Shown piece by piece: positions 36,001-64,000 of a stretch of 64,000 bases of DNA. This DNA is from Auanema rhodensis. Taxonomy: Eukaryota > Animalia > Nematoda. The stretch spans positions 3,286,001-3,350,000 of the forward strand of contig OZ059895.1 in NCBI GenBank assembly GCA_964057225.1, written 5' to 3'. Positions within the stretch are counted from its first letter, which is position 1. The number at the start of each line of letters is the position of its first letter. The notes beneath the pieces were generated by a model that worked only from the letters and a program-made list of their open reading frames with translations, searched no databases and was not told where the DNA came from. A program made the translations under genes and the position numbers.

Positions 36001-37575
36001 TTTTTTCAACTTTCACTCAGTTTGTTTTCTAAACTTTGATTAAGAACCTTGAGTTTTGTACACCCATAAAATATACGCAGCACAGGTTACCCTTAAATAA
36101 TGAACTGACTGTCTAATCAGACATGGATCTTCCCAAGTTCTGTTGCTTGAATGGATGTTTTCCTACGTAGGCTAGTAAAACATGCCCTTCAAAGCATCAG
36201 AACATGTGATCACATTCCAATATTTTTGTATCTATCTTGTAAAGATAGTAATATATCATATGTTGAACACTATGTTGGAAAGATTTTAATTCAGATTTTT
36301 TCAACTTTCACTCAGTTTGTTTTCTAAACTTTGATTAAGAACCTTGAGTTTTGTACACCCATAAATTATACGCAGCACAGGTTACCCTTAAATAATGAAC
36401 TGACCGACTAATCAGACATGGATCTTTCCTAGTTCTGTTGCTTGAATGGATGTTTTCCTACGTAGGCTAGTAAAACATGCCCTTCAAAGCATCAGAACAT
36501 GTGATCACATTCCAATTTTTTTGTATCTATCTTGTAAAGATAGTAATTATATCATATGTTGAACACTATGTTGGAAAGATTTTAATTCAGATTTTCTAAC
36601 TTTTATTCAGTTTGTTTTTTAAACTTTGATTAAGAACTTTGATTTTTGTACACCCATAAATTATACGCAGCACAGGTTACCCTTGAATAATGAACTGACC
36701 GACTAATCAGACATGGATCTTTCCTAGTTCTGTTGCTTGAATGGATGTTTTCCTACGTAGGCTAGTAAAACATGCCCTTCAAAGCATCAGAACATGTGAT
36801 CACATTCCAATTTTTTTGTATCTATCTTGTAAAGATAGTAATAAACTTTGATTTTTGTACACCCATAAATTATACGCAGCACAGGTTACCCTTAAATAAT
36901 GAACTGACCGACTAATCAGACATGGATCTTTCCAAGTTCTGTTGCTTGAACGGATGTTTTCCTACGTAGGCTAGTAAAACATGCCCTTCAAAGCATCAGA
37001 ACATGTGATCACATTTCAATTTTTTTGTATCTATCTTGTAAAGATAGTAATATATCATATGTTGAACACTATGTTGGAAAGATTTTAATTCAGATTTTTT
37101 CAACTTTCACTCAGTTTGTTTTCTAAACTTTGATTAAGAACCTTGTTGTTTGTACACCCATAAAATATACGCAGCACAGGTTACCCTTAAATAATGAACT
37201 GACCGTCTAATCAGACATGGATCTTCCCAAGTTCTGTTGCTTGAATGGATGTTTTCCTACAAAGGCTAGTAAAACATGCCCTTCAAAGCATCAGAACATG
37301 TGATCACATTCCAATTTTTTTGTATCTATCTTGTAAAGATAGTAATATATCATATGTTGAACACTATGTTGGAAAGATTTTAATTCAGATTTTCTAACTT
37401 TTATTCAGTTTGTTTTTTAAACTTTGATTAAGAACTTTGATTTTTGTACACCCATAAATTATACGCAGCACAGGTTACCCTTAAATAATGAACTGACCGA
37501 CTAATCAGACATGGATCTTTCCTAGTTCTGTTGCTTGAATGGATGTTTTCCTACGTAGGCTAGTAAAACATGCCC
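1..37575. repeat. Tandem satellite array, left arm (294/295-bp monomers mixed with 209/210-bp deletion monomers)
   Basis: Near-identical head-to-tail units (ACACCCATAAATTATACGCAGCACAGGTTACCC...). Spacing 4186->4774 = 588 = 2x294. Short units recur at 3661/3871/4081 = 210 bp. Runs off the left edge of the window. Confidence 0.99.
37572..37575 (+). other. Target-site duplication GCCC (left copy)
   Basis: Empty satellite reads CAT-GCCC-TTC. Here CATGCCC precedes the 5' LTR and GCCCTTC follows the 3' LTR. Confidence 0.95.
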
Positions 37576-37911
37576 CGTTCCATTCGGATGATCAATACGT
37601 AGCAGGCGGGTTAGAGCTAGACGACAAGAGACGAGAGGAGCTGACACGCCCTTTATACGGAACTCAGACTTTAGTTCTGTCTCATGGAATGACTAAGGAT
37701 GGCTTGTCATCTCCTCAGAGCTCACCTATAGTTTATATCTCTTTAATTCTTATCGTAACTTATTGTAATCATTATGTAGAATAAACCTTTCTTTTCATGA
37801 GTCTTATGTTATCCATTATGCTCTATTAATACCGCTACATCTGGAACACTGTATCGCACATCTTATAGACTACATTGGTCTATAGGATAGATGCGAGAGC
37901 ATAACGGAACG
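37576..37911 (+). repeat. 5' LTR (336 bp)
   Basis: CGTTCCATTCGG...ATAACGGAACG. Matches 48034-48369 with no difference seen. Terminal inverted repeat CGTTCC/GGAACG. Confidence 0.97.
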
Positions 37912-37924
37912 TGGAGGTTCCACC
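37912..37924 (+). promoter_or_regulatory. Primer binding site, tRNA-Gln type
   Basis: TGGAGGTTCCACC directly abuts the 5' LTR and equals the first 13 nt of the known retroviral tRNA-Gln PBS TGGAGGTTCCACCGAGAT. Confidence 0.85.
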
Positions 37925-39336
37925 TCGAACGTTTTTTTTACTTTCTCTTATTTTCTTAAATTTTATTCACTCTTGCAATATTCATTTTCTTTTCAACTTT
38001 CTCTTATCCATTGCCATCTTCTCCACGCTAAAACACAAAACGGAGGGGCCAACATCGTTATAGGGAACAGATGCAAGGAACTCTCATAATAAGAGAGTAA
38101 AATTATACATTTTGGGAAGAATTTATTTTACTTGATCCCGTTGTTCACAATTTTGTCATGTCTGAACCTAAGTCACATATCCTTGCTATTAACATCTGAT
38201 TATACTGTTACCCGACCTCGAAGCCACATGAGGACTTTAGGCTGAATTCGTGAACAGATTCACCTAAAGATTTTATATATATTTTGATTATTACCCACAC
38301 CATTCTCCTTTTAAGGATTGATTTCGGCTTTGAGGAAAGAATAACTCCAGTTATTTCTTAAATTTTGTGGATGAAAAGCATGCCAATTTGAATTTTAAAT
38401 AATTTTGCGATAAGGACTATTATATTTTGCGTTTAAAATCGTTCAGACAACTTTTAGCATTTACCATCCAAAAATATAACAAAACGCTTAAAAATCGTAC
38501 GGGAAACCTCACAACAAGTGAGAGGATGTTTAATTTAATAACTTACATTCGCTATAGTCCGAAAAATCCTGCGATATTCTTACAAACTGATCTCCCAATT
38601 TAAACTTATTCGTCAGGTCGAGTTGGCTAAAGCATATTAGTTGGATTTTCTCCCCATACTATATGTCACCTTCCTCATACCGTTTTGTTGTTTAGAAACA
38701 TGAGACTCAATTCCAAATCATCTTATTCTTTTTATAATTTCGTATAGTTCTTGTAAATTTTAGTCAGCTATGTAACTTCAATATTATAAAACGAGATCTT
38801 TGGTTTGCAAAACGACTACGGTAGATTTCTTAAAAAAGATCCTTACTTCCCGTTGAACCATGAACGAACGAATTAAGTATGCAATTGGGACTAGTAATTC
38901 CTCTTGGATAGAGTGATGGATTACCAAAGTCTAATTTTAATGCAACTTTTTGGAATGCCTAAGGGAGTTTGCGACTAAAAATCAAAAATTTCTATAAAAA
39001 AGAGAAGGGAATAAGCCCATTGAGACCAGGCAATCATCCATAATGCGTGCAAAGAGAAAAGAAAAATGCAAATGCTATACAAATTGGACCCAAAAGACCA
39101 AGATAACCAAAGTCCAATTCCAAAGTACGGTAGAAGGCGGATCTAAAGTTATGGCCAGAACCTTAGATTCATTCCTATCCTTCCGACTTGACCAAACCAG
39201 TTGTCAGTCTCAATCTAACTTTTCCCAACTTACCACCAACAACTAAACGTACATACCCGCCCAATTACGTTCAAATTCCATCATCCCACACGTAATCAGA
39301 CACTCGAGGTTTTTTCAAACCAAGAGCCCTAACAAG

Positions 39337-39765
39337 GTGGAGAGAAGGTATAACTCAGCAGTACCTCTCAGTACGCACTCCAACCCGGATCCCCGCGACT
39401 CAGCTCCAGTAACCAGAAGCCGAACTCGCGCGCAAAGTGTCGCCATCATCAACGAAGACACAGCAGAGGAGAAGCCTAACGTGGAAAAATTTTACACGCC
39501 CCGTGCAGGTACGTTTTCTCCTTCAGAACGTTCTAGTGATCCGGACTATATACCATCTGGAGACGACGAGCGACCCTTGGTGATAGACGAACAGACACCG
39601 AACACCACTACGAAAGAAAAGGTACGCTCTTCCAATATACATAAAAATAAAAATAATAAAAACCTAAATAATTCTGATATCTCTCTCTCTCTCTCTCTCA
39701 AGTCAAGAACCTACTGGTTCACCTTCAACAACAGGCTTACAATCTCTCAAAAACAAAGTCGTTGA
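39337..39765 (+). pseudogene. Low-complexity ORF upstream of gag (no ATG), probably a frameshifted or spliced N-terminal extension of Gag
   Basis: Frame open 39247-39762. S/T/P/E/R-rich disordered sequence. Overlaps the Gag frame (open from 39668) across a (TC)10 tract. Confidence 0.4.
39680..39699 (+). repeat. (TC)10 microsatellite
   Basis: TCTCTCTCTCTCTCTCTCTC read directly. Confidence 0.95.
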
Positions 39766-39769
39766 TTTA

Positions 39770-40786
39770 TTGAATCGCTCACCCAAAGACCCAAACCCAA
39801 AATCTAGCCGAGCACAGCGACTTGCTACAATACCCAATACATACACGCGCTATACGTTATCTCCAATCACCTCACCGGAGCAAAGAAAACTTTTGAAAAA
39901 TAACCCACAAACATCAACCCCAATTCTCAATAGTCCAAGATTAGACGAATTGACGACACCTAACCAATATAACCAAACAGAGCACATTACTCCTACGTCA
40001 GGAAGTTCAAGATCTGCACATACAGTAATAGCTGTTCCGAAAAAAATGACTGAGCCCGCAACCAATTTACCCGGAGCGGGGAAAACAACAATTGCCCAAG
40101 TTTTAACATCACCCTACTGCCCTGTTTATGACGGTAGCCGCAATTTCCGCGACTTTACCGCTAAATTTAATGTCTTCGCTAATGCACTTGGCCTAGTGAT
40201 ACCTGAAAGGTTGACTCTTCTGCCGTTGCTTCTTAAAAATGATGCGGCAGAAGAAGCATACAAACAAACTCCTGAACACCTTAAAACATCGGGTTCATGG
40301 AATGATTTGTTAGCAGCTTTAACATCAAAGCTCTGTCCTGAATATAATCAGGACCCAGCACTGATCAGCCTTCAAAACACTAGTCAAGGGGATCTTTCGA
40401 TTGATGCCTTTGCTCAGGCTTTGCGAACAATAAGCCTTAGTGCTTTTGCCAGTGATGACCCACATAAGGATCACATACTAAGATCAACCTTCCTGAGAGG
40501 ACTTAAAAATACTCTGAAGGCAGGAGTGATCCGAGCAAGGCCCAAAACCTTTGCTGAGGCGATTGAGGCTGCTCGCTGGGAAGAATCAATATTGAACCAG
40601 ACAGCAGACACTCAGGCGATGCTAGTGAATGCAGTTAACCAAGCACTAGCTCCCTTTACGCGCAATAAAGAGAGAAGAGATAACAGAACCTTTGACCGAA
40701 GTTACCAGCGCGTTAATCAAAATTATCAAAATTATCAAAATTATCAAACAAATAAAAACCGTTCAAATTATAACAATTTCCAATGA
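39770..40786 (+). CDS. gag: Gag (Ty3/Arc-like capsid). First in-frame ATG at 40046. N/Q-rich C-terminus, no zinc knuckle
   Basis: PVYDGSRNFRDFTAKF...SWNDLLAAL...SQGDLSIDAFAQAL...STFLRGLK...PKTFAEAIEAA matches the retrotransposon capsid pattern. Position follows the PBS and leader. Confidence 0.9.
   Translation: MNRSPKDPNPKSSRAQRLATIPNTYTRYTLSPITSPEQRKLLKNNPQTSTPILNSPRLDELTTPNQYNQTEHITPTSGSSRSAHTVIAVPKKMTEPATNLPGAGKTTIAQVLTSPYCPVYDGSRNFRDFTAKFNVFANALGLVIPERLTLLPLLLKNDAAEEAYKQTPEHLKTSGSWNDLLAALTSKLCPEYNQDPALISLQNTSQGDLSIDAFAQALRTISLSAFASDDPHKDHILRSTFLRGLKNTLKAGVIRARPKTFAEAIEAARWEESILNQTADTQAMLVNAVNQALAPFTRNKERRDNRTFDRSYQRVNQNYQNYQNYQTNKNRSNYNNFQ
40721..40747 (+). repeat. (AATTATCAA)x3 coding minisatellite (NYQ repeats) at Gag C-terminus
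   Basis: Three perfect 9-bp units read directly. Confidence 0.9.
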
Positions 40787-42399
40787 CCCGCATGCCAGAC
40801 GATACCATCCTTTCAAACTTACTACTAAACACTGAAGGGTGCAGTGCGCATCATGGTAACTGCAAATCAAACACATCAATAATTATTTGGGATCCACAAA
40901 CTACGGATTCCCGTTGCAATTACATAGATATGCACACATATGAAGCCATCATTAGCGGCGATACTATCCTAATTCCGAGCACACAATCTGCTCTTATCCT
41001 TTCGAACAAACCAACCCCAAAACCTATCGCTTCGTGTTTTAGACAACCAGCATTTCACACAACATCGGGGAACTACATCATACTCCCCAAATTTCCAAAT
41101 GACAATAACATTACTATCCTCGTAGAAAGAGAGTTTAGAAAATTGCCGTTCAAAAGACAAAAACGCGCAATCGCTACAGGATGTTTATTCCCTTTAGACC
41201 AAGATAGAGTAATGGAAGTTGAAGATTTTGAGACTCATACGCTTCACATATGCCCATATGCCTTTTTGAGACCAATTATGAGCAATCCGGGCATTACGCA
41301 GATTATCTCTTTAATCAAAGGAAGACGAATGGCAGATCCCACGTACTCTTTAAAAGAATGGATAACTGCTAATCGCGAGAAATTTGAATTTTTCTTTAAA
41401 ATCCAAATTTATGATAAATCCTTAAGACATTTTCTTAAACAATACGATTTTCGCGATAAAGATGAAGCAATCCTACAATATGTTGCACAAAGAGAACTGG
41501 CGTTAGCAACAAAGACAGGAATATCTTATCTAACACCCAAACAATTACTTCAACAAATATCTGATCGGTTAACTGTTATTGAATTCGATCGCATTCTTCA
41601 TACCAAAGAAGGCACTTATCGTGAAAGAACTGAAAGTATTGCGCTTGATTTAGCTAATACCCCAGTCATAATCGAAGAAAACCTCACTGTTCCATCTAGA
41701 CAAGAAGTGTTACAATCTTTTGTGAAATTACCACCGATACGACAAAAGATACTTACAAATGAAGAAGCACAAAAGAGCGAATTCATACAAGAAACAATTA
41801 ATCTTGTAACCGAACTTAAAACTCTCATAAAAATTAGGAAAAACAAAACAGCAGCAGACATTGATGAGATGAAATTTATTAATCTTCCTGCATCACGAAT
41901 GTTTGTACAAAATACTGATAAACTGTTCTACGATATCAAAAATAATTTTGGAATACCAATCGGTCCACACCCTAAGCTCATCAAGCCTAGTAAAATCTCT
42001 AAAGATTTATTATTGAAAATTTTCTTGCCACTACTTGCTGAAAAGAAATTGCCTTATACTTCAAGTAGAATATCACCAGAACACCTAAGGAGACTAATGG
42101 CAGAGAAACTCGAGCTTGAATCGCTGCAAACCACGACGCGTACGCCGAGCGTCGCTGCAGGCGGCAGCAACATCAGCCCAACCCATAATCGATCGGAAGA
42201 CGACCATCGAATCAGATCCCGCAATGCAGCCGCATGCAATAACAAGCCCTCAAGCAACCGCAGCGACTACCGCGCGCGCGCCATCGTCGACAGCCGAGCC
42301 GAAAATAACAGAGAGCTACACAACCGCAACAACTACCGCACGCGCGACAATATCGACTACCCAGGCGCCAACATCAACAAAGCTCTACGCCACTTATAA
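40783..42399 (+). CDS. Env-like glycoprotein, N-terminal part (gB/chuvirus-G-like Cys pattern, furin site, large insert). Likely continues into the next ORF by a +1 shift near 42130-42152
   Basis: GCSAHHGNC...IIIWDP...CNY Cys/Trp spacing, N-glycosylation sequons, RQKR at 41155-41166. No signal peptide visible. Confidence 0.6.
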   Translation: MTRMPDDTILSNLLLNTEGCSAHHGNCKSNTSIIIWDPQTTDSRCNYIDMHTYEAIISGDTILIPSTQSALILSNKPTPKPIASCFRQPAFHTTSGNYIILPKFPNDNNITILVEREFRKLPFKRQKRAIATGCLFPLDQDRVMEVEDFETHTLHICPYAFLRPIMSNPGITQIISLIKGRRMADPTYSLKEWITANREKFEFFFKIQIYDKSLRHFLKQYDFRDKDEAILQYVAQRELALATKTGISYLTPKQLLQQISDRLTVIEFDRILHTKEGTYRERTESIALDLANTPVIIEENLTVPSRQEVLQSFVKLPPIRQKILTNEEAQKSEFIQETINLVTELKTLIKIRKNKTAADIDEMKFINLPASRMFVQNTDKLFYDIKNNFGIPIGPHPKLIKPSKISKDLLLKIFLPLLAEKKLPYTSSRISPEHLRRLMAEKLELESLQTTTRTPSVAAGGSNISPTHNRSEDDHRIRSRNAAACNNKPSSNRSDYRARAIVDSRAENNRELHNRNNYRTRDNIDYPGANINKALRHL

Positions 42400-45300
42400 A
42401 GATCAACAAATTCCAATAATGGACGAAATAACATACTTACCCACGACATTGATTCGGAAACAGAGAGCTTCATCAACACCAACAGCAAAAGAAATACAGT
42501 CTGTTCAGGCTCAAGCTCATTACATAGCTTCGAAAATTGACTCGGAAGAACAGTATCGCCAAAACATTACGAGCAAGATTGCACAAGATCATTTGCAATA
42601 CGCCACAACAATGATTCAAAGCGAGCTACAGAAACATTTCAAAGAGTCATACGAATCAATATGTGAGATCCAAAATAGATATCTAGAGCTATGGCGATCA
42701 ATTTTACAAATCGAACCAACAATCGCGATGCGTACTATCCTTGGAAGAGAAGACATAGCAGCTCGTTTTGTTGGAAGTGAGATATTACACGTACATGTTT
42801 GCCCAACAGTTTTCACAAAAACTATTTATCACAATCACACGGTAAACAATACATGTTATCTCGAAACGCCAATTTTAACCGAAGAAGGCCAATTACTATT
42901 CGCAGCCCCAGGATCAAAAGATCTTCTACCCCACGGAAAAGAAATCAATTGTGATCACGTACCAACAGACGTATGGTCAGCAGACGGTGAATGGAAAGGA
43001 ATCAATGGCACAGTAGATGTCAGTCTCATATCCATGGGAGATGGACTGCATCACGAAAAGATCACACCATTAAAATTCACTGGAGCACACCTTTACACTA
43101 ATTTAACATCACGTGTATACTCCATGACCACAGCCATTGCTTATGGTGCTAGTTTAGCGTCAATCCGTCAAAATCATGTACTTCATACAATTCACAATGA
43201 TCCTAAAATATCAGCCGCTTATAGTGTTTTAAAGAAGAGTAGTGACTACATATCTAAAGCACACGAATTCACAAAAAACACTTGGAATTCATTCATTGAT
43301 ACGATGGTAGGGACAATCGAACGAACACTAATTACAATTGGTGCAATCACATCTGTTATAATAATTGTGATCATACTAGCATTTATCATCAAGGTCTACT
43401 TCCTCAAATCAATTCCGATACCAATCATGCACATTGAACTGAAGGATCGAAATAGTAACCCACCTACATACGAAGAAACCTTAGAGCTAGTTACTCAACC
43501 TGATCAACCCATTCCAAGAAACATAATGAAGCAATACTACCCATCAATACTGACGTATATACCAATTGCAATACCATTGGTTTGTTCAATTTCAAAAAGG
43601 AAAGATCAATCTTTACCACTATTATGGATGACTGTTAATGACAGATTAGTCCTCACCTTATGGGATTCAGGATCATCTATCAGTTATATCAGAGTATCAA
43701 CACTACATTACTTGACTTTAAATGACTTTGTAAAGAACAATAAATCAAGTGCTACAACAGCAAACGGATCAGAATTTCGATTCATCGGTACAATAGATCT
43801 AACCGTCGAAATTGCCGGATATGAAATCGATCATACATTCTATATATCCAACGATGAAGACTGCCCTTCACCAGCATTAATTGGATTAGATTTCATGAAG
43901 ACACTTGACAGTCAAAACATTGGCATGAAACTTAGACCATACAAAAGGACACTAGAGATTGGAAACCGCGTAGTACGGTTAGCTAATGGAATTGACGGAA
44001 GACTCAGCAAAACATCAACAACTGTCAATCTGATTAACTTAAAACAGCGAGATATGCTTCCAAACGAAACTTGTACACTACAAGTTCAATTAGAAAAACC
44101 CATCAGAGACGATTCTTTCGCGATGCTCTCGATAGATAATAACAATATGCTAACACCCAAATACCATACAGCATTTCGCGATGTTAATTCCATTGATATC
44201 ACGTTCAAAAACAACTCCAACAAATTTATTGAATTACCATCAGGACACGTAATTACTAAAGCTGAGATAGGAATCATGCCAGACTATGAAATCTTCACAA
44301 CTGATCAAAAACAAGACTATATTCCACCTGAAGCTGATTGGGAAAGTAAATTACCTACTTTTCCAACTGATTTTATGAAAGAACTTGATCTAAAAGATGC
44401 TGATCTTACACAAAATCTTAAAGATCATTTACGTTCTATAATTCGCAGACGAAAAAAGGCTTTCCTCAATGAAGACAAAAATATAGGACTGTTCAAAGGC
44501 CCTGTAGAACACAGCATACCATTAAGAACTGACATGGATATGCCTAAACCTAGGATCACTCGTATACCCTTAGGAAAACAAGAGGAAATCGAAAGACAAG
44601 TACAGGAAATGCTTCAACAAGGAATAATCGAACCATCAACATCACTGTTCAATAGTCCTGTCGTATTAGTGAAGAAAAAGGACGATACATTTCGTTTCGT
44701 AACTGATTTCCGCGCCTTAAACAACGTTACACGGAAGCAAACATATGTAATTCCTAATATCTCCGACATTATTGATATGGCAGCTGGATCAAAATATTTT
44801 TCCAATTTTGATTTAGTTTCTGGATTTTTCCAAATACCATTAAAAAAATCAGACCGATCCTTAACAGCCTTCACAACAAATACGGGAACGTATCAATACA
44901 GAAGGATGCCTATGGGATTATGTGGCGCTCCACATACCTTCCAAACTGCGGTACGATATCTTCAAAGCAGATGCAAATGCAGACTATTCGTTTACTTAGA
45001 CGATCTACTTGTTATATCAGATAATGCAGAACAACACATATATGATATTGAAGAAGTACTCGAAAGAATTGAAGAACTAGGATTGAAGATAAAGCTCAAG
45101 AAATGCTCATTTGCTAGACCAGAAGTCAAATTTCTTGGGTTAATTGTTGGAAGAGATGGAGTTAAGCCTGATCCAAAGAAAGTTTCCGCCATCCAAGACT
45201 ATCCTGCTCCACAGTCACCTACGGGAGTTAGAGCATTTTTGGGAATGGTAGGATTCTTTCGGAAATTCATTAAAGACTTTGCTCACATCGCAAGCCCTCT

Positions 45301-47305
45301 ATATGATCTCACAAAACTGGACACAGATTTCAAATGGTCAGACCAGTGCCAACAAGCGCTAGATAAATTAAAGAAAAGATTAATGGAAGCACCAGTACTG
45401 AAACCACCAAGAGCAGATCGTACTTTCATAATTGAAAGCGATGGCAGCAATATAGCCATCGGAGCAGTACTGTTACAACCTGAAGATCCGAATGAACCTT
45501 TGAAAAACTTACATCCTATTGCATTCGCAAGTAGAAAATTAGTTAAAGCCGAACGAAACTATCCTCCTATTGAGATCGAAGCCCTAGGATTAGTATACGC
45601 GCTTGCTCAGTTTCGGACTTATATACTTGGATCACACGCAATATGCATTACGGATCACCGACCATTAACAAGCTTAATGACACGAAGAGATTTGTTTGGA
45701 AGACTAGCAAAATTTCAATTAGTGATACAGGAATACAACATTGAGATCAGATATCGTGAAGGTAGACTAAACAAAGTCTGTGACGCTCTTTCACGATACA
45801 TTGGAGACGAAGCTAATGATCCAAAGCCAGAAAAGAAAAAGAAAGTTAAAGAGCCTCAACTTGCTCAGGTTAACTTTGTTAACATACCAGACATTAAACA
45901 AATACAAAGCAATACACCTTGGATCAAAAAGACAATTGCCGAAATTGAATACAGAACAAAGAAAAACATGCTCTCCAATGATCGTTATTGTGTAATTGAT
46001 AACATGCTGTACACAAAACCGAGCACGAAAAGACCACACCCAGCCTTAGTTTTACCACGAGAGAGCGAACTGATCAGCAAGATCATCGAAGAATTTCATG
46101 AAGACCCAGCAATCGGGGCACATCAAGGAATTAATAAAACTAAAGAAGCCATATTACGAAGATTCTTCTGGACAAATATGCAAACGGACATAGCAATTTT
46201 TGTGAAACAATGCGTTAAATGCGCACAAAGAAAGAAAGACCCTCATGCTATGACCGTTCAGCCAATGGGTCAATTCGAAATACCATCTAAACCATTTGAG
46301 AGAATACATATGGATATCATGGGACCATTCCCAACATCAAAAAGAAACAACAACTACGTTCTTACAATCCAGGACTCTTTTTCCAAATGGGCGACAACTA
46401 TTGCTATACCTAAAATAGTTACGGACGTTGTCATCGACAGATTCCTCAGAAATTTTGTATACATTTATGGACCTCCAAATCGACTAATAACAGATCGAGG
46501 TTCCAATTTTGTATCAAAGAAATTCGAAAATATGTGTGATAAACTCGGCATAAAACATGAACCAACACTCCCGCATCAGAAGAACTCTAACGGACAAGTG
46601 GAAAGACTACATAGGACGTTAGAAGAAGGATTAACACATTATTTGAACGAAGAAATTACTGATTGGGACTTATTTTTGCCAAAAGTCACCTTTGCGTTAA
46701 ACACCACAACACACTCAACAACAGGAATATCACCATATATAGCTTTATTCGGAAAAGAAAGTCGTATGAGACTCGATAAAGAATTATCACCTGAAACACC
46801 GGAATCAGGAACAATATCCATTGATATAGAAAACATGGAACAACTTCGTCAAGAAAGAAAATCTCTCATTCAAGATAACTTGGAAAAACATCAGCAACAA
46901 GCAAAGAAGAAACACGATTCAAGACAACGAATTGAAGAAAGGGACATCCGTGAAGGAGACCAAGTTATGTTGACCATTAAGTCACATAAAATAGGTCAAA
47001 AGCTGAGGAAATGTTATGATGGACCCTTTGAGGTCATCAAAGTAAAAGGATCAATGGTACAAATCAAGAATCCTTTTGGAAAACTCCAAGATATACACAA
47101 AGACAACTTGAAACTTTTCAATCGAAGTTCAACATGTGGAGCAGCACACAACACTCGCTCCAAAGCTAGAAACAGCGACTCAGATGACGACAGTGACATC
47201 GAAATTATCGAAGTTATACACGGAGACAATAACGAAGAATTAGACACCGAAATTGACTCAGAAGACCCATCAGATCATAATTGGATACCATCAAGAAGAA
47301 GATAA
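42116..47305 (+). CDS. pol: Env-Pol polyprotein: Thr-rich linker, gB-like ectodomain C-half, TM helix, PPxY tail, aspartic protease, RT, RNase H, integrase
   Basis: Single 1729-codon ORF. WDSGS protease (D at 43664), YLDD (44993-45004), RNase H ESDGS/IEAL/TDHRPL/DALSR, integrase H-H-C-C plus D(MDIMGP)-D(TDRGSNF)-E(NGQVER), GPF motif. Confidence 0.95.
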   Translation: MNRCKPRRVRRASLQAAATSAQPIIDRKTTIESDPAMQPHAITSPQATAATTARAPSSTAEPKITESYTTATTTARATISTTQAPTSTKLYATYKDQQIPIMDEITYLPTTLIRKQRASSTPTAKEIQSVQAQAHYIASKIDSEEQYRQNITSKIAQDHLQYATTMIQSELQKHFKESYESICEIQNRYLELWRSILQIEPTIAMRTILGREDIAARFVGSEILHVHVCPTVFTKTIYHNHTVNNTCYLETPILTEEGQLLFAAPGSKDLLPHGKEINCDHVPTDVWSADGEWKGINGTVDVSLISMGDGLHHEKITPLKFTGAHLYTNLTSRVYSMTTAIAYGASLASIRQNHVLHTIHNDPKISAAYSVLKKSSDYISKAHEFTKNTWNSFIDTMVGTIERTLITIGAITSVIIIVIILAFIIKVYFLKSIPIPIMHIELKDRNSNPPTYEETLELVTQPDQPIPRNIMKQYYPSILTYIPIAIPLVCSISKRKDQSLPLLWMTVNDRLVLTLWDSGSSISYIRVSTLHYLTLNDFVKNNKSSATTANGSEFRFIGTIDLTVEIAGYEIDHTFYISNDEDCPSPALIGLDFMKTLDSQNIGMKLRPYKRTLEIGNRVVRLANGIDGRLSKTSTTVNLINLKQRDMLPNETCTLQVQLEKPIRDDSFAMLSIDNNNMLTPKYHTAFRDVNSIDITFKNNSNKFIELPSGHVITKAEIGIMPDYEIFTTDQKQDYIPPEADWESKLPTFPTDFMKELDLKDADLTQNLKDHLRSIIRRRKKAFLNEDKNIGLFKGPVEHSIPLRTDMDMPKPRITRIPLGKQEEIERQVQEMLQQGIIEPSTSLFNSPVVLVKKKDDTFRFVTDFRALNNVTRKQTYVIPNISDIIDMAAGSKYFSNFDLVSGFFQIPLKKSDRSLTAFTTNTGTYQYRRMPMGLCGAPHTFQTAVRYLQSRCKCRLFVYLDDLLVISDNAEQHIYDIEEVLERIEELGLKIKLKKCSFARPEVKFLGLIVGRDGVKPDPKKVSAIQDYPAPQSPTGVRAFLGMVGFFRKFIKDFAHIASPLYDLTKLDTDFKWSDQCQQALDKLKKRLMEAPVLKPPRADRTFIIESDGSNIAIGAVLLQPEDPNEPLKNLHPIAFASRKLVKAERNYPPIEIEALGLVYALAQFRTYILGSHAICITDHRPLTSLMTRRDLFGRLAKFQLVIQEYNIEIRYREGRLNKVCDALSRYIGDEANDPKPEKKKKVKEPQLAQVNFVNIPDIKQIQSNTPWIKKTIAEIEYRTKKNMLSNDRYCVIDNMLYTKPSTKRPHPALVLPRESELISKIIEEFHEDPAIGAHQGINKTKEAILRRFFWTNMQTDIAIFVKQCVKCAQRKKDPHAMTVQPMGQFEIPSKPFERIHMDIMGPFPTSKRNNNYVLTIQDSFSKWATTIAIPKIVTDVVIDRFLRNFVYIYGPPNRLITDRGSNFVSKKFENMCDKLGIKHEPTLPHQKNSNGQVERLHRTLEEGLTHYLNEEITDWDLFLPKVTFALNTTTHSTTGISPYIALFGKESRMRLDKELSPETPESGTISIDIENMEQLRQERKSLIQDNLEKHQQQAKKKHDSRQRIEERDIREGDQVMLTIKSHKIGQKLRKCYDGPFEVIKVKGSMVQIKNPFGKLQDIHKDNLKLFNRSSTCGAAHNTRSKARNSDSDDDSDIEIIEVIHGDNNEELDTEIDSEDPSDHNWIPSRRR
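42590..43390 (+). other. Class III fusion protein (herpes gB / chuvirus glycoprotein-like) C-terminal ectodomain and transmembrane helix within the pol ORF
   Basis: A long helix ending ICEIQ, then IEPTIAMRTILGREDIAARFVG..LHVHVCPTV...TCYLETPI, parallels the gB motif NP..IASA..GR.VSAR.LGDV.AV..C..V...CYSRP. Sequons NHT/NNT/NGT/NLT. Hydrophobic LITIGAITSVIIIVIILAFII at 43328-43390. Confidence 0.75.
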
Positions 47306-47997
47306 AACAACCACATTGATTATACTCTTGTTAAACATTTTGCATAAAAAATCGTTTTAAGGAAACTAGAGCTAAAAATTAATTTTACCAACACAAACAA
47401 CGGATAGATGAGCAGTAAGCTATAACTTAATGAGCAGTCATGTTTCAAGCACATCGAAAAAAAAAATATATATATAATAATAGCTACAAATTATCATAAA
47501 AGTTACTCCAATCTCAAATAATTTCCCCTAAAAACCCGAAGAAATGAAAGATGAGAGACATTATATTGCAATCAAAGCTGAGCAACAGTCATCATCAAGT
47601 AATTAATGATTCATTTCTGGAAATTATACGGGATTGTTTTAATAATTCCAAACAAATAATGTTTTCTTTCAAAACTGAAGAAACAGCCTAGCTTCATTGA
47701 GAGTATAACTTAGCTCTCGCTACTCTGCTCTATATTGGTTAGACATACAGCGTCGTGCCCAAAAAGCTACTTTCATGCACTTTCGCTGACAAAATATAGC
47801 TCTAGTATTCTTAAAAGATTGTGTTTTTGCTTTATACTCATGTATTATTTTATTTAAAACTTATTAAATCCTTTTTAGACAATATTGTTGAGGTTAATAT
47901 TGTATAATTTTGTATTATTTGAACAACAACAATGTATTTTAACATGTAAAACCTCTAAACCTCTTGCTACGATTGAAACAAGCCATACATTTTGATA

Positions 47998-48033
47998 GTC
48001 GCGAGGACGCGACATAAACTCGAAAAAATGGCA
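47998..48033 (+). promoter_or_regulatory. Pre-LTR hairpin (GTCGCG-AGGA-CGCGAC) and weak polypurine tract (GAAAAAATGG)
   Basis: Perfect 6-bp stem at 47998-48013, then a short purine-rich run just 5' of the 3' LTR, which is the expected plus-strand priming position. Confidence 0.6.
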
Positions 48034-48369
48034 CGTTCCATTCGGATGATCAATACGTAGCAGGCGGGTTAGAGCTAGACGACAAGAGACGAGAGGAGCT
48101 GACACGCCCTTTATACGGAACTCAGACTTTAGTTCTGTCTCATGGAATGACTAAGGATGGCTTGTCATCTCCTCAGAGCTCACCTATAGTTTATATCTCT
48201 TTAATTCTTATCGTAACTTATTGTAATCATTATGTAGAATAAACCTTTCTTTTCATGAGTCTTATGTTATCCATTATGCTCTATTAATACCGCTACATCT
48301 GGAACACTGTATCGCACATCTTATAGACTACATTGGTCTATAGGATAGATGCGAGAGCATAACGGAACG
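48034..48369 (+). repeat. 3' LTR (336 bp)
   Basis: Direct repeat of 37576-37911. Boundaries are fixed by divergence of the flanking bases on both sides. Confidence 0.97.
48238..48243 (+). terminator. Polyadenylation signal AATAAA in 3' LTR (copy at 37780-37785)
   Basis: AATAAA inside the LTR followed by T/GT-rich sequence. Confidence 0.6.
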
Positions 48370-48373
48370 GCCC
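48370..48373 (+). other. Target-site duplication GCCC (right copy)
   Basis: GGAACG|GCCC|TTCAAAG. Confidence 0.95.
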
Positions 48374-51300
48374 TTCAAAGCATCAGAACATGTGATCACA
48401 TTCCAATTTTTTTGAAATCTATCTTGTAAAGATAGTAATAAACTTTGATTTTTGTACACCCATAAATTATACGCAGCACAGGTTACCCTTAAATAATGAA
48501 CTGACCGACTAATCAGACATGGATCTTTCCTAGTTCTGTTGCTTGAATGGATGTTTTCCTACGTAGGCTAGTAAAACATGCCCTTCAAAGCATCAGAACA
48601 TGTGATCACATTCCAATTTTTTTGTATCTATCTTGTAAAGATAGTAATATATCATATGTTGAACACTATGTTGGAAAGATTTTAATTCAGATTTACGAAC
48701 TTTTATTCAGTTTGTTTTTTAAACTTTGATTAAGAACTTTGATTTTTGTACACCCATAAATTATACGCAGCACAGGTTACCCTTAAATAATGAACTGACC
48801 GACTAATCAGACATGGATCTTTCCAAGTTCTGTTGCTTGAATGGATGTTTTCCTACGTAGGCTAGTAAAACATGCCCTTCAAAGCATCAGAACATGTGAC
48901 CACATTCCAATTTTTTTGTATCTATCTTGTAAAGATAGTAATATATCATATGTTGAACACTATGTTGGAAAGATTTTAATTCAGATTTTCTAACTTTTAT
49001 TCAGTTTGTTTTTTAAACTTTGATTAAGAACTTTGATTTTTGTACACCCATAAATTATACGCAGCACAGGTTACCCTTAAATAATGAACTGACCGACTAA
49101 TCAGACATGGATCTTTCCTAGTTCTGTTGCTTGAATGGATGTTTTCCTACGTAGGCTAGTAAAACATGCCCTTCAAAGCATCAGAACATGTGATCACATT
49201 CCAATATTTTTCTATCTATCTTGTAAAGATAGTAATATATCATATGTTGAACACTATGTTGGAAAGATTTTAATTCAGATTTTTTCAACTTTCACTCAGT
49301 TTGTTTTCTAAACTTTGATTAAGAACCTTGAGTTTTGTACACCCATAAAATATACGCAGCACAGGTTACCCTTAAATAATGAACTGACTGTCTAATCAGA
49401 CATGGATCTTCCCAAGTTCTGTTGCTTGAATGGATGTTTTCCTACGTAGGCTAGTAAAACATGCCCTTCAAAGCATCAGAACATGTGATCACATTCCAAT
49501 TTTTTTGTATCTATCTTGTAAAGATAGTAATATATCATATGTTGAACACTATGTTGGAAAGATTTTAATTCAGATTTTCGAACTTTTATTCAGTTTGTTT
49601 TTTAAACTTTGATTAAGAACTTTGATTTTTGTACACCCATAAATTATACGCAGCACAGGTTACCCTTAATTAATGAACTGACCGACTAATCAGACATGGA
49701 TCTTTCCAAGTTCTGTTGCTTGAACGGATGTTTTCCTACGAAGGCTAGTAAAACATGCCCTTCAAAGCATCAGAACATGTGATCACATTCCAATATTTTT
49801 GTATCTATCTTGTAAAGATAGTAATATATCATATGTTGAACACTATGTTGGAAAGATTTTAATTCGGTATTTTTTCAACTTTCACTCAGTTTGTTTTCTT
49901 AACTTTGATTAAGAACCTTGAGTTTTGTACACCCATAAATTATACGCAGCACAGGTTACCCTTAAATAATGAACTGACCGACTAATCAGACATGGATCTT
50001 TCCTAGTTCTGTTGCTTGAATGGATGTTTTCCTACGTAGGCTAGTAAAACATGCCCTTCAAAGCATCAGAACATGTGATCACATTCCAATATTTTTGTAT
50101 CTATCTTGTAAAGATAGTAATATATCATATGTTGAACACTATGTTGGAAAGATTTTAATTCAGATTTTTTCAACTTTCACTCAGTTTGTTTTCTAAACTT
50201 TGATTAAGAACCTTGAGTTTTGTACACCCATAAATTATACGCAGCACAGGTTACCCTTAAATAATGAACTGACCGACTAATCAGACATGGATCTTTCCTA
50301 GTTCTGTTGCTTGAATGGATGTTTTCCTACGTAGGCTAGTAAAACATGCCCTTCAAAGCATCAGAACATGTGATCACATTCCAATATTTTTGTATCTATC
50401 TTGTAAAGATAGTAATATATCATATGTTGAACACTATGTTGGAAAGATTTTAATTCAGATTTTTTCAACTTTCACTCAGTTTGTTTTCTAAACTTTGATT
50501 AAGAACCTTGAGTTTTGTACACCCATAAATTATACGCAGCACAGGTTACCCTTAATTAATGAACTGACCGACTAATCAGACATGGATCTTTCCAAGTTCT
50601 GTTGCTTGAACGGATGTTTTCCTACGAAGGCTAGTAAAACATGCCCTTCAAAGCATCAGAACATGTGATCACATTCCAATATTTTTGTATCTATCTTGTA
50701 AAGATAGTAATATATCATATGTTGAACACTATGTTGGAAAGATTTTAATTCGGTTTTTTTTCAACTTTCACTCAGTTTGTTTTCTTAACTTTGATTAAGA
50801 ACCTTGAGTTTTGTACACCCATAAATTATACGCAGCACAGGTTACCCTTAAATAATGAACTGACCGACTAATCAGACATGGATCTTTCCTAGTTCTGTTG
50901 CTTGAATGGATGTTTTCCTACGTAGGCTAGTAAAACATGCCCTTCAAAGCATCAGAACATGTGATCACATTCCAATATTTTTGTATCTATCTTGTAAAGA
51001 TAGTAATATATCATATGTTGAACACTATGTTGGAAAGATTTTAATTCAGATTTTTTCAACTTTCACTCAGTTTGTTTTCTAAACTTTGATTAAGAACCTT
51101 GAGTTTTGTACACCCATAAATTATACGCAGCACAGGTTACCCTTAAATAATGAACTGACCGACTAATCAGACATGGATCTTTCCTAGTTCTGTTGCTTGA
51201 ATGGATGTTTTCCTACGTAGGCTAGTAAAACATGCCCTTCAAAGCATCAGAACATGTCATCACATTCCAATTTTTTTGTATCTATCTTGTAAAGATAGTA

Positions 51301-54300
51301 ATTATATCATATGTTGAACACTATGTTGGAAAGATTTTAATTCAGATTTTCTAACTTTTATTCAGTTTGTTTTTTAAACTTTGATTAAGAACTTTGATTT
51401 TTGTACACCCATAAATTATACGCAGCACAGGTTACCCTTGAATAATGAACTGACCGACTAATCAGACATGGATCTTTCCTAGTTCTGTTGCTTGAATGGA
51501 TGTTTTCCTACGTAGGCTAGTAAAACATGCCCTTCAAAGCATCAGAACATGTGATCACATTCCAATTTTTTTGTATCTATCTTGTAAAGATAGTAATAAA
51601 CTTTGATTTTTGTACACCCATAAATTATACGCAGCACAGGTTACCCTTAAATAATGAACTGACCGACTAATCAGACATGGATCTTTCCAAGTTCTGTTGC
51701 TTGAACGGATGTTTTCCTACGTAGGCTAGTAAAACATGCCCTTCAAAGCATCAGAACATGTGATCACATTTCAATTTTTTTGTATCTATCTTGTAAAGAT
51801 AGTAATATATCATATGTTGAACACTATGTTGGAAAGATTTTAATTCAGATTTTTTCAACTTTCACTCAGTTTGTTTTCTAAACTTTGATTAAGAACCTTG
51901 TTGTTTGTACACCCATAAAATATACGCAGCACAGGTTACCCTTAAATAATGAACTGACCGTCTAATCAGACATGGATCTTCCCAAGTTCTGTTGCTTGAA
52001 TGGATGTTTTCCTACGTAGGCTAGTAAAACATGCCCTTCAAAGCATCAGAACATGTGATCACATTCCAATTTTTTTGTATCTATCTTGTAAAGATAGTAA
52101 TATATCATATGTTGAACACTATGTTGGAAAGATTTTAATTCAGATTTTCTAACTTTTATTCAGTTTGTTTTTTAAACTTTGATTAAGAACTTTGATTTTT
52201 GTACACCCATAAATTATACGCAGCACAGGTTACCCTTAAATAATGAACTGACCGACTAATCAGACATGGATCTTTCCTAGTTCTGTTGCTTGAATGGATG
52301 TTTTCCTACGTAGGCTAGTAAAACATGCCCTTCAAAGCATCAGAACATGTGATCACATTCCAATTTTTTTGAAATCTATCTTGTAAAGATAGTAATAAAC
52401 TTTGATTTTTGTACACTCATAAATTATACGCAGCACAGGTTACCCTTAAATAATGAACTGACCGACTAATCAGACATGGATCTTTCCTAGTTCTGTTGCT
52501 TGAATGGATGTTTTCCTACGTAGGCTAGTAAAACATGCCCTTCAAAGCATCAGAACATGTGATCACATTCCAATTTTTTTGTATCTATCTTGTAAAGATA
52601 GTAATATATCATATGTTGAACACTATGTTGGAAAGATTTTAATTCAGATTTACGAACTTTTATTCAGTTTGTTTTTTAAACTTTGATTAAGAACTTTGAT
52701 TTTTGTACACCCATAAATTATACGCAGCACAGGTTACCCTTAAATAATGAACTGACCGACTAATCAGACATGGATCTTTCCAAGTTCTGTTGCTTGAATG
52801 GATGTTTTCCTACGTAGGCTAGTAAAACATGCCCTTCAAAGCATCAGAACATGTGACCACATTCCAATTTTTTTGTATCTATCTTGTAAAGATAGTAATA
52901 TATCATATGTTGAACACTATGTTGGAAAGATTTTAATTCAGATTTTCTAACTTTTATTCAGTTTGTTTTTTAAACTTTGATTAAGAACTTTGATTTTTGT
53001 ACACCCATAAATTATACGCAGCACAGGTTACCCTTAAATAATGAACTGACCGACTAATCAGACATGGATCTTTCCTAGTTCTGTTGCTTGAATGGATGTT
53101 TTCCTACGTAGGCTAGTAAAACATGCCCTTCAAAGCATCAGAACATGTGATCACATTCCAATATTTTTGTATCTATCTTGTAAAGATAGTAATATATCAT
53201 ATGTTGAACACTATGTTGGAAAGATTTTAATTCAGATTTTCTAACTTTTATTCAGTTTGTTTTTTAAACTTTGATTAAGAACTTTGATTTTTGTACACCC
53301 ATAAATTATACGCAGCACAGGTTACCCTTGAATAATGAACTGACCGACTAATCAGACATGGATCTTTCCTAGTTCTGTTGCTTGAATGGATGTTTTCCTA
53401 CGTAGGCTAGTAAAACATGCCCTTCAAAGCATCAGAACATGTGATCACATTCCAATTTTTTTGTATCTATCTTGTAAAGATAGTAATAAACTTTGATTTT
53501 TGTACACCCATAAATTATACGCAGCACAGGTTACCCTTAAATAATGAACTGACCGACTAATCAGACATGGATCTTTCCAAGTTCTGTTGCTTGAACGGAT
53601 GTTTTCCTACGTAGGCTAGTAAAACATGCCCTTCAAAGCATCAGAACATGTGATCACATTTCAATTTTTTTGTATCTATCTTGTAAAGATAGTAATATAT
53701 CATATGTTGAACACTATGTTGGAAAGATTTTAATTCAGATTTTTTCAACTTTCACTCAGTTTGTTTTCTAAACTTTGATTAAGAACCTTGTTGTTTGTAC
53801 ACCCATAAAATATACGCAGCACAGGTTACCCTTAAATAATGAACTGACCGTCTAATCAGACATGGATCTTCCCAAGTTCTGTTGCTTGAATGGATGTTTT
53901 CCTACGTAGGCTAGTAAAACATGCCCTTCAAAGCATCAGAACATGTGATCACATTCCAATTTTTTTGTATCTATCTTGTAAAGATAGTAATATATCATAT
54001 GTTGAACACTATGTTGGAAAGATTTTAATTCAGATTTTCTAACTTTTATTCAGTTTGTTTTTTAAACTTTGATTAAGAACTTTGATTTTTGTACACCCAT
54101 AAATTATACGCAGCACAGGTTACCCTTAAATAATGAACTGACCGACTAATCAGACATGGATCTTTCCTAGTTCTGTTGCTTGAATGGATGTTTTCCTACG
54201 TAGGCTAGTAAAACATGCCCTTCAAAGCATCAGAACATGTGATCACATTCCAATTTTTTTGAAATCTATCTTGTAAAGATAGTAATAAACTTTGATTTTT

Positions 54301-57300
54301 GTACACCCATAAATTATACGCAGCACAGGTTACCCTTAAATAATGAACTGACCGACTAATCAGACATGGATCTTTCCTAGTTCTGTTGCTTGAATGGATG
54401 TTTTCCTACGTAGGCTAGTAAAACATGCCCTTCAAAGCATCAGAACATGTGATCACATTCCAATTTTTTTGTATCTATCTTGTAAAGATAGTAATATATC
54501 ATATGTTGAACACTATGTTGGAAAGATTTTAATTCAGATTTACGAACTTTTATTCAGTTTGTTTTTTAAACTTTGATTAAGAACTTTGATTTTTGTACAC
54601 CCATAAATTATACGCAGCACAGGTTACCCTTAAATAATGAACTGACCGACTAATCAGACATGGATCTTTCCAAGTTCTGTTGCTTGAATGGATGTTTTCC
54701 TACGTAGGCTAGTAAAACATGCCCTTCAAAGCATCAGAACATGTGACCACATTCCAATTTTTTTGTATCTATCTTGTAAAGATAGTAATATATCATATGT
54801 TGAACACTATGTTGGAAAGATTTTAATTCAGATTTTCTAACTTTTATTCAGTTTGTTTTTTAAACTTTGATTAAGAACTTTGATTTTTGTACACCCATAA
54901 ATTATACGCAGCACAGGTTACCCTTAAATAATGAACTGACCGACTAATCAGACATGGATCTTTCCTAGTTCTGTTGCTTGAATGGATGTTTTCCTACGTA
55001 GGCTAGTAAAACATGCCCTTCAAAGCATCAGAACATGTGATCACATTCCAATATTTTTGTATCTATCTTGTAAAGATAGTAATATATCATATGTTGAACA
55101 CTATGTTGGAAAGATTTTAATTCGGTTTTTTTTCAACTTTCACTCAGTTTGTTTTCTTAACTTTGATTAAGAACTTTGATTTTTGTACACCCATAAATTA
55201 TACGCAGCACAGGTTACCCTTAAATAATGAACTGACCGACTAATCAGACATGGATCTTTCCTAGTTCTGTTGCTTGAATGGATGTTTTCCTACGTAGGCT
55301 AGTAAAACATGCCCTTCAAAGCATCAGAACATGTGATCACATTCCAATTTTTTTGTATCTATCTTGTAAAGATAGTAATAAACTTTGATTTTTGTACACC
55401 CATAAATTATACGCAGCACAGGTTACCCTTAAATAATGAACTGACCGACTAATCAGACATGGATCTTTCCAAGTTCTGTTGCTTGAACGGATGTTTTTCT
55501 ACGTAGGCTAGTAAAACATGCCCTTCAAAGCATCAGAACATGTGATCACATTTCAATTTTTTTGTATCTATCTTGTAAAGATAGTAATATATCATATGTT
55601 GAACACTATGTTGGAAAGATTTTAATTCAGATTTTTTCAACTTTCACTCAGTTTGTTTTCTAAACTTTGATTAAGAACCTTGAGTTTTGTACACCCATAA
55701 ATTATACGCAGCACAGGTTACCCTTAAATAATGAACTGACCGACTAATCAGACATGGATCTTTCCTAGTTCTGTTGCTTGAATGGATGTTTTCCTACGTA
55801 GGCTAGTAAAACATGCCCTTCAAAGCATCAGAACATGTGATCACATTCCAATATTTTTGTATCTATCTTGTAAAGATAGTAATATATCATATGTTGAACA
55901 CTATGTTGGAAAGATTTTAATTCAGATTTTTTCAACTTTCACTCAGTTTGTTTTCTAAACTTTGATTAAGAACCTTGTTGTTTGTACACCCATAAAATAT
56001 ACGCAGCACAGGTTACCCTTAAATAATGAACTGACCGTCTAATCAGACATGGATCTTCCCAAGTTCTGTTGCTTGAATGGATGTTTTCCTACGTAGGCTA
56101 GTAAAACATGCCCTTCAAAGCATCAGAACATGTGATCACATTCCAATATTTTTGTATCTATCTTGTAAAGATAGTAATATATCATATGTTGAACACTATG
56201 TTGGAAAGATTTTAATTCAGATTTTTTCAACTTTCACTCAGTTTGTTTTCTAAACTTTGATTAAGAACCTTGAGTTTTGTACACCCATAAATTATACGCA
56301 GCACAGGTTACCCTTAAATAATGAACTGACCGACTAATCAGACATGGATCTTTCCTAGTTCTGTTGCTTGAATGGATGTTTTCCTACGTAGGCTAGTAAA
56401 ACATGCCCTTCAAAGCATCAGAACATGTGATCACATTCCAATTTTTTTGTATCTATCTTGTAAAGATAGTAATTATATCATATGTTGAACACTATGTTGG
56501 AAAGATTTTAATTCAGATTTTCTAACTTTTATTCAGTTTGTTTTTTAAACTTTGATTAAGAACTTTGATTTTCGTACACCCATAAATTATACGCAGCACA
56601 GGTTACCCTTAAATAATGAACTGACCGACTAATCAGACATGGATCTTTCCTAGTTCTGTTGCTTGAATGGATGTTTTCCTACGTAGGCTAGTAAAACATG
56701 CCATTCAAAGCATCAGAACATGTGATCACATTCCAATATTTTTGTATCTATCTTGTAAAGATAGTAATATATCATATGTTGAACACTATGTTGGAAAGAT
56801 TTTAATTCAGATTTTCTAACTTTTATTCAGTTTATTTTTTAAACTTTGATTAAGAACTTTGATTTTTGTACACCCATAAATTATACGCAGCACAGGTTAC
56901 CCTTAAATAATGAACTGACCGACTAATCAGACATGGATCTTTCCTAGTTCTGTTGCTTGAATGGATGTTTTCCTACGTAGGCTAGTAAAACATGCCCTTC
57001 AAAGCATCAGAACATGTGATCACATTCCAATATTTTTGTATCTATCTTGTAAAGATAGTAATATATCATATGTTGAACACTATGTTGGAAAGATTTTAAT
57101 TCAGATTTTCTAACTTTTATTCAGTTTGTTTTTTAAACTTTGATTAAGAACTTTGATTTTTGTACACCCATAAATTATACGCAGCACAGGTTACCCTTGA
57201 ATAATGAACTGACCGACTAATCAGACATGGATCTTTCCTAGTTCTGTTGCTTGAATGGATGTTTTCCTACGTAGGCTAGTAAAACATGCCCTTCAAAGCA

Positions 57301-63300: not shown

Positions 63301-64000
63301 AACTGACCGACTAATCAGACATGGATCTTTCCAAGTTCTGTTGCTTGAACGGATGTTTTCCTACGTAGGCTAGTAAAACATGCCCTTCAAAGCATCAGAA
63401 CATGTGACCACATTCCAATTTTTTTGTATCTATCTTGTAAAGATAGTAATATATCATATGTTGAACACTATGTTGGAAAGATTTTAATTCAGATTTTTTC
63501 AACTTTCACTCAGTTTGTTTTCTAAACTTTGATTAAGAACCTTGAGTTTTGTACACCCATAAATTATACGCAGCACAGGTTACCCTTAAATAATGAACTG
63601 ACCGACTAATCAGACATGGATCTTTCCAAGTTCTGTTGCTTGAATGGATGTTTTCCTACGTAGGCTAGTAAAACATGCCCTTCAAAGCATCAGAACATGT
63701 GACCACATTCCAATTTTTTTGTATCTATCTTGTAAAGATAGTAATATATCATATGTTGAACACTATGTTGGAAAGATTTTAATTCAGATTTTCTAACTTT
63801 TATTCTGTTTGTTTTTTAAACTTTGATTAAGAACTTTGATTTTTGTACACCCATAAATTATACGCAGCACAGGTTACCCTTAAATAATGAACTGACCGAC
63901 TAATCAGACATGGATCTTTCCAAGTTCTGTTGCTTGAACGGATGTTTTTCTACGTAGGCTAGTAAAACATGCCCTTCAAAGCATCAGAACATGTGATCAC
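48370..64000. repeat. Tandem satellite array, right arm (same family, plus 167-bp deletion monomers near 62.1 and 63.1 kb)
   Basis: Resumes exactly where the interrupted monomer left off (GCCCTTCAAAGCATCAG), in the same orientation. Runs off the right edge. Confidence 0.99.

Follow-up and report, generated by a model that had tools for sequence, protein, structure and literature searches.

A broken gag-env-pol element of the Ty3/gypsy group with a gB-like Env in the nematode Auanema rhodensis

A 64,000-nucleotide stretch of the Auanema rhodensis genome (assembly GCA_964057225.1, contig OZ059895.1, positions 3,286,001 to 3,350,000; hereafter the window, with coordinates counted from its first nucleotide) carries a Ty3/gypsy retrotransposon in which sequence for a fusogen similar to herpesvirus glycoprotein B (gB) is located between gag and pol. 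The element is bounded by long terminal repeats (LTRs) and occupies 37576-48369, exceeding the interval 39770-47305 given in a first-pass annotation made from the letters alone. It is a defective further member of a class that has already been described. The reading we consider probable is that it represents a broken copy of a gag-env-pol element, the intact relatives of which produce Gag, a gB-like Env and Pol as a single chain that is predicted to cross the endoplasmic reticulum (ER) membrane twice and then to be cut.

Env upstream of Pol in the window copy and its relatives

Three long open reading frames (ORFs) are found in the element, namely gag (39668-40786), ORF2 (40774-42399) and ORF3 (42098-47305). 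ORF3 is 1735 amino acids (aa) long from stop to stop, or 1729 aa from a TTG at 42116, and runs without interruption from a gB-like C-terminal half through one membrane helix into protease (PR), reverse transcriptase (RT), RNase H (RH) and integrase (IN). Its Pfam matches include Monjiviricetes_fusion (PF24664) at aa 166-436, with an E value of 5.8e-14 (above the cut-off), and an overlapping match to Glycoprotein_B (PF00606) at aa 163-246 that falls below the cut-off (E 2.1e-8). The protease motif WDSGS is at aa 522, about 110 residues past the helix, and YLDD is at aa 966. Five Cys and six N-glycosylation sequons occur in the first 411 aa, and the first ~120 codons are a low-complexity linker, partly in a frame unlike that of the relatives. 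The remainder of env is in ORF2, which begins mid-domain, is 46% identical to the relative P0001 over 433 aa, and shows weaker matches to P0003-P0005. The first-pass annotation had proposed a gB-like fusogen fused in frame upstream of PR-RT-RH-IN and contained in the 1729-aa ORF. Order, frame, gB-like domain and helix are as it stated, but this ORF includes only the C-terminal half of the fusogen, the rest being in ORF2. It had also remarked that no env follows integrase; none is present, the longest stop-free frame among all six across the 728 bp beyond ORF3 being 56 codons.

An AlphaFold2 model of the C-terminal half of the window Env (292 aa, 17-sequence alignment; predicted local distance difference test score (pLDDT) 70.6, predicted template modelling score (pTM) 0.43) contains a 76-residue helix, a beta domain and a helical arm. 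All ten Foldseek matches to it at E <= 0.001 were to herpesvirus gB (E 2.2e-4 to 9e-4). A model was also made of the complete ectodomain of P0005, a relative from Ancylostoma (pLDDT 60, pTM 0.40); it matched herpes gB at E 1.7e-18. The models support membership of the gB family and the domain order, though not an accurate structure; with the Pfam matches, they support the class III fusogen that had been suspected at first inspection.

Between the two env halves, directly after a furin-type site, is an insert (41167-42072) of about 300 aa that matched only P0001 (phmmer E 9e-57) and P0002 (4e-7) among the 126 sequences of the scan described below. It has no Pfam match, and its Atlas hits are weak and inconsistent. 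No match was found among longer proteins, a weak negative, as the same search missed the known match P0001. Across the relatives, the sequence at this position is 31-482 aa long and often rich in Ser, Thr and Pro.

Relatives were collected with an env-protease query, which gave 7 proteins among 6436 candidates, and an RT query, for which 120 of 2206 were listed; 125 fetched sequences plus ORF3 of the window were then scanned locally with profiles (126 sequences). The env profiles matched 20 of the 126, and in every chain with both env and RT (19/19), env precedes RT. Fourteen of these 19 had not been used in building the profiles. The test covers single chains only and would therefore miss an env carried by a downstream ORF of its own. 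Within that scope, the order is a trait of the lineage. Gag, both env halves and RT occur together in one chain in 7 of the 18 relatives with env and RT (one has a short gag piece only), and most of the others begin downstream of gag. Unbroken gag-env-pol chains include P0003, P0004, P0011, P0012, P0014 and P0044, with the Pfam order checked for P0003 and P0004; P0005 has, in addition, a weak gag match. In these relatives, Gag is in the same chain as Env and is joined to it via a signal-like segment.

An RT tree (FastTree, 119 sequences, midpoint root; 7 of the 126 were dropped, their RT match being outside 330-460 aa) places the window copy in a clade of 12 with a support of 1.0. Ten of these 12 chains are env-first, and the two without env start too near RT, it would seem, to include it. 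The 11 other members are all labelled as rhabditid nematodes (Auanema, Heterorhabditis, Caenorhabditis, Diploscapter). In the neighbouring clade, 16 of 20 chains are env-first. A CCHC knuckle is absent from the ten clade relatives checked (10/10) and present only in two sequences outside the clade. These two, the metagenome proteins P0061 (2774 aa) and P0066 (2603 aa), also carry env before RT; their position outside the nematode RT clade agrees with the reported polyphyly of the layout, and P0061 also has Ig-like Pfam domains. Three Strongyloides proteins (P0040, P0052, P0060) adjoin the env-first clade; the 1000-1500 aa that precede RT in them, unmatched by the env profiles, may be a divergent env or some other insert.

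Damage in the window copy

The closest relative, P0001, is 46-50% identical to the window copy, and comparison of the two reveals a break at 40781/40783. The sequence absent there comprises the gag tail, the signal-like segment and the first ~137 aa of the ectodomain, a part that, going by the models, likely holds both fusion loops. The gag ORF of the window copy stops early relative to the relatives. A frame change is located between ~42,070 and 42,450, in the low-complexity linker. Gag and Env-Pol look separate in the window because of these two lesions, the loss of ~235 codons at the gag/env junction and the frame break inside env, and a deletion in this copy, damage rather than design, best accounts for the separate gag ORF. 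The window copy is likely to have no capacity for a working envelope, and its Pol is likely deprived of its normal translation route.

Four public DNA runs, drawn from three studies and including one that may be the source of the window itself, provided contigs that were mapped on the element. The helix-protease junction is bridged by a single contig in all four, gap-free in three and with one gap somewhere in the contig of the fourth, so the join flagged at the outset for confirmation is not a misassembly. Contigs of three of the four runs have extra sequence just before 40783, and within 40783-42670 those of all four show gaps relative to the window. Given these gaps and the unbroken relatives, a programmed frameshift inside env seems unlikely.

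That misassembly or a one-off rearrangement placed env before pol in this copy might be entertained given the location of the element inside a satellite array and its two breaks. However, the bridging contigs, the env-first order of all 19 chains (14 of them outside profile building), and the identical LTRs with a clean target duplication leave this explanation with next to no probability.

The first-pass annotation read the arrangement differently, with gag separate by design, Env-Pol as a membrane protein of its own, and Pol packaged via Env without a Gag-Pol link. The gag frame does stop at 40786, and no stop separates helix from protease in env-pol. Yet the window env has no signal segment and begins mid-domain, the relatives are continuous from Gag into Env, and the additional sequence in contigs of three runs lies at the gag/env junction. 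Since the relatives hold Gag in the same chain, recruitment of Pol through Env in place of a Gag-Pol fusion is not borne out, and the model as a whole appears very improbable. Part of it survives in the polyprotein reading preferred here, in which Pol would hang on Env once the Gag/signal junction was cut.

Junction features and predicted processing

A hydrophobic 15-mer (Kyte-Doolittle (KD) score 1.95-2.65) stands directly before the ectodomain in all 12 chains with a whole env N-terminus, and its N-terminal flank is net positive in nine. A single helix is found 98-128 aa ahead of the protease motif in 18/18 chains, and only one of the 18 has a further hydrophobic peak downstream of it. Of 13 chains, 12 have a furin-type site in the insert that separates the env halves. 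The motif [VI]N.[VILM] occurs just before the signal in 9/12 chains (0.69 expected) and within 45 aa past the helix in 13/18 (2.19 expected), making these [V/I]-N-x-hydrophobic words a lead as candidate sites for the protease of the element.

Under the polyprotein reading, Gag would be made first and remain cytosolic. The hydrophobic segment would then act as an internal signal, directing the ectodomain into the ER lumen, and signal peptidase would free the ectodomain from it. The helix would stop transfer, leaving PR-RT-RH-IN to be made on the cytosolic side. By standard signal and stop-transfer rules, the two predicted membrane crossings would leave the ectodomain lumenal and both Gag and Pol cytosolic, in keeping with the topology of one helix and a cytosolic Pol tail that the first look had proposed. 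Cleavage by the element's protease would fall at the [V/I]-N-x-hydrophobic sites that immediately precede the signal and follow the helix, and furin would cleave the ectodomain. Particles with a trimeric fusogen might then bud and enter other cells, probably germ cells. The junctions thus predict an internal signal after Gag and a stop-transfer helix, each with a recurring candidate protease site facing the cytosol.

Several points weigh against this reading. Some of the NCBI relatives are gene models, in which predicted introns could have brought separate frames together. Domain packing in the monomer models is uncertain (see the pTM values above), and for this reason their global TM-scores to gB stay low, at 0.24-0.41. 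The flank before the signal is net negative in three Caenorhabditis chains. The helix of the window copy itself is without a [VI]N.[VILM] motif after it, and 5 of the 18 chains miss it; furthermore, the motif was picked after viewing the sequences, and the chains are not independent. Processing, topology and fusion are all predictions from sequence. The weak point of the model is that equal (1:1:1) output of Gag, Env and Pol would be wasteful, and an extra source of Gag may therefore exist.

Such a source could be a shorter RNA, spliced or prematurely ended, or gag-only deletion derivatives acting in trans, with the full chain mainly supplying Env and Pol. Single-contig depth is higher over gag than over env-pol in all four runs (X1, 292 vs 138; X2, 76 vs 13; X3, 94 vs 28; X7, 59 vs 16), an excess of about 2 to 6 times that hints at an additional supply of Gag, although contig depth is not copy number. 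One run also has a contig in which the end of gag (40781) is fused to position 46868, close to the 3′ end; however, this joint is listed in only one of the four, and gag-only derivatives are readily accounted for as non-autonomous parasites of the element, a type of derivative established for LTR elements. A surplus of Gag from either source is unlikely, if worth keeping in view. Two further deletion joints, 39621 to 41154 and 41227 to 47108, are present in contigs of all four runs, and skip gag and most of env-pol.

A bolder combination would unite the twice-threaded polyprotein and its flavivirus-like processing with more numerous gag-only copies as trans helpers and the ~300-aa insert as a receptor-binding module. 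It would amount to a two-component endogenous virus with a lineage-specific fusogen domain of ~300 aa, and we regard it as distinctly unlikely.

Element boundaries and comparison with known systems

The features of the element are collected in Table 1.

Table 1. Features of the gag-env-pol element, in window coordinates
Feature	Position	Strand	Basis or remark
Target-site duplication GCCC	left 37572..37575, right 48370-48373	+	flanks compared; inside ~295-nt satellite unit
5′ LTR, 336 bp	37576..37911	+	0 mismatches vs 3′ LTR; AATAAA at 37780
Primer-binding site, tRNA-Gln type	37912..37924	+	reverse complement of first 12 nt = published Gln primer-binding site
Long 5′ leader	37925..39667	+	includes start of 172-codon stop-free frame 39247-39765
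gag ORF, 372 aa stop to stop, first Met 40046	39668..40786	+	Pfam Retrotrans_gag E 1.9e-5, Ty3_capsid E 9.5e-4; BLASTP to relatives
Break, ~235 codons of closest relative absent	40781..40783	+	alignment of gag to P0001 ends at aa 80; that of ORF2 starts at aa 318
Remaining N-terminal half of gB-like ectodomain, ending in furin-type site RQKR	40783..41166	+	alignment of relatives
Insert of ~300 aa after furin-type site	41167..42072	+	matched only in two Auanema relatives
Ser/Thr/Ala/Pro-rich linker containing frame break	42073..42452	+	ORF2 matches P0001 to aa 433, ORF3 from aa 119
C-terminal half of gB-like ectodomain (long central helix, beta crown domain, helical arm)	42455..43330	+	PF24664 E 7.9e-14
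Single predicted transmembrane helix	43331..43390	+	KD 2.97; ORF3 aa 412-430
Predicted cytosolic tail, helix to protease	43391..43627	+	no stop; contig-bridged
Aspartic protease, WDSGS	43628..43900	+	PF13975 E 8e-7; aa 511-601
Reverse transcriptase, YLDD	44669..45145	+	PF00078 E 8.6e-33; aa 858-1016
RNase H	45335..45736	+	PF17919 and PF17917; aa 1080-1213
Integrase (zinc finger, core, C-terminal region) and stop	46064..47305	+	PF17921 aa 1323-1380, PF00665 aa 1397-1493
3′ untranslated region, 728 bp	47306..48033	+	between ORF3 stop and 3′ LTR
3′ LTR, 336 bp	48034..48369	+	identical to 5′ LTR

The LTR termini are CGTTCC...GGAACG (6-bp inverted ends) and not TG...CA. The identity of the two LTRs suggests a recent insertion of a template that was already defective. 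No tRNA genes were found in the 64-kb window. The leader frame at 39247-39765, which overlaps the start of the gag frame, gave no significant Pfam match and none among the fetched relatives. The element is inserted into one satellite unit; the window contains 186 occurrences of the empty-site word. Its flanks (1-37575 and 48370-64000) are apparently one satellite array of 294-295-nt units and 209-210-nt variants with a higher-order pattern; they are 32-33% GC, with repeats checked over 30000-56000 and a flat composition elsewhere.

Identical LTRs, a primer-binding site, a 4-bp duplication, the order PR-RT-RH-IN and an RT nearest to that of Ty3 assign the element to Ty3/gypsy (Metaviridae), with LTR ends of the form CG...CG. 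Among the best 60 matches listed, the closest solved structure to its RT/RNase H is that of Ty3 (E 1.6e-73), which scored 252 bits, compared with 158 for the runner-up and at most 117 for retroviral RTs; no BEL RT was listed. The yeast element Ty3 has the same PR-RT-RH-IN order, and the capsid family matches. Ty3 differs in lacking env and in passing from gag to pol by a +1 frameshift. Assignment to the errantiviruses of the Drosophila type was rejected, their env being F-type and placed in an ORF of its own 3′ of pol; here, no ORF follows integrase and env is gB-type.

The predicted processing recalls the structural polyproteins of flaviviruses and alphaviruses, in which capsid is followed by an internal signal, a viral protease cuts on the cytosolic side, and signalase and furin act on the lumenal side. 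This is an analogy only and implies no homology, these being RNA viruses with class II fusogens.

Tas and Cer7 have a Belpaoviridae Pol and an env 3′ of integrase. Membership of BEL/Pao (Tas, Cer7, Atlas), a group whose gag carries CCHC knuckles, was rejected for the window element, in which env is 5′ of protease and not 3′ of integrase; no CCHC knuckle was seen in the clade relatives checked. As nematode LTR elements with a captured viral glycoprotein, the enveloped BEL/Pao elements (Tas, Cer7 and Atlas virus) are nevertheless comparable; Atlas virus reportedly differs in its Belpaoviridae Pol, its env 3′ of integrase and its phlebovirus-like class II protein (PMC9094657).

With gag, env and pol in that order and an Env of the kind termed HSV/gB (HSV, herpes simplex virus), the window element falls in the nematode GAG-ENV-POL group. 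Sacco et al. (2022) reportedly found a continuous gag-env-pro-pol ORF in a clade named NERV. According to Chary & Hayashi (eLife 2026; PMC13524379), elements of Nematoda, Bryozoa and Platyhelminthes carry only an HSV/gB-type ENV in the order GAG-ENV-POL, so the first-pass suggestion that the layout was undescribed no longer stands. That paper credits nematode endogenous retroviruses with flipped ENV/POL to Sacco et al. 2022 (J Gen Virol 103:1739, doi 10.1099/jgv.0.001739), and cites them as the capture of an RNA-virus glycoprotein by a metavirus. Cell entry by gB-carrying elements is given there as unknown. Its main text makes no mention of a polyprotein, a single ORF, a fused product or a frameshift, and processing is not discussed in it. 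A literature search for a gag-env-pol retrotransposon layout found only this paper, which leaves room for a processing model published elsewhere.

The window element differs from the 36 nematode elements tabulated in PMC13524379, none of them from Auanema, in being broken and in carrying the ~300-aa insert after the furin site. It shares with them the gene order, the gB-type ENV, a Ty3/gypsy Pol and the tRNA-Gln primer-binding site, which 8 of the 36 use; the 12-mer is identical to that of Clat_errantivirus_4 and Ctro_errantivirus_1 (2/36). The N-terminal env piece appears alike to that of Clat_errantivirus_4 at ~35 of 93 residues, a count made by eye and not computed, and species in the RT clades of the window copy (C. 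remanei, C. nigoni, C. brenneri, M. enterolobii) are also on the published list. The layout is thus already in print, and the Auanema copy adds one more, broken member; the remaining interest is in the mechanism of processing, the predictions for which bear on a way for a retroelement to get Pol into particles as the tail of its own fusogen.

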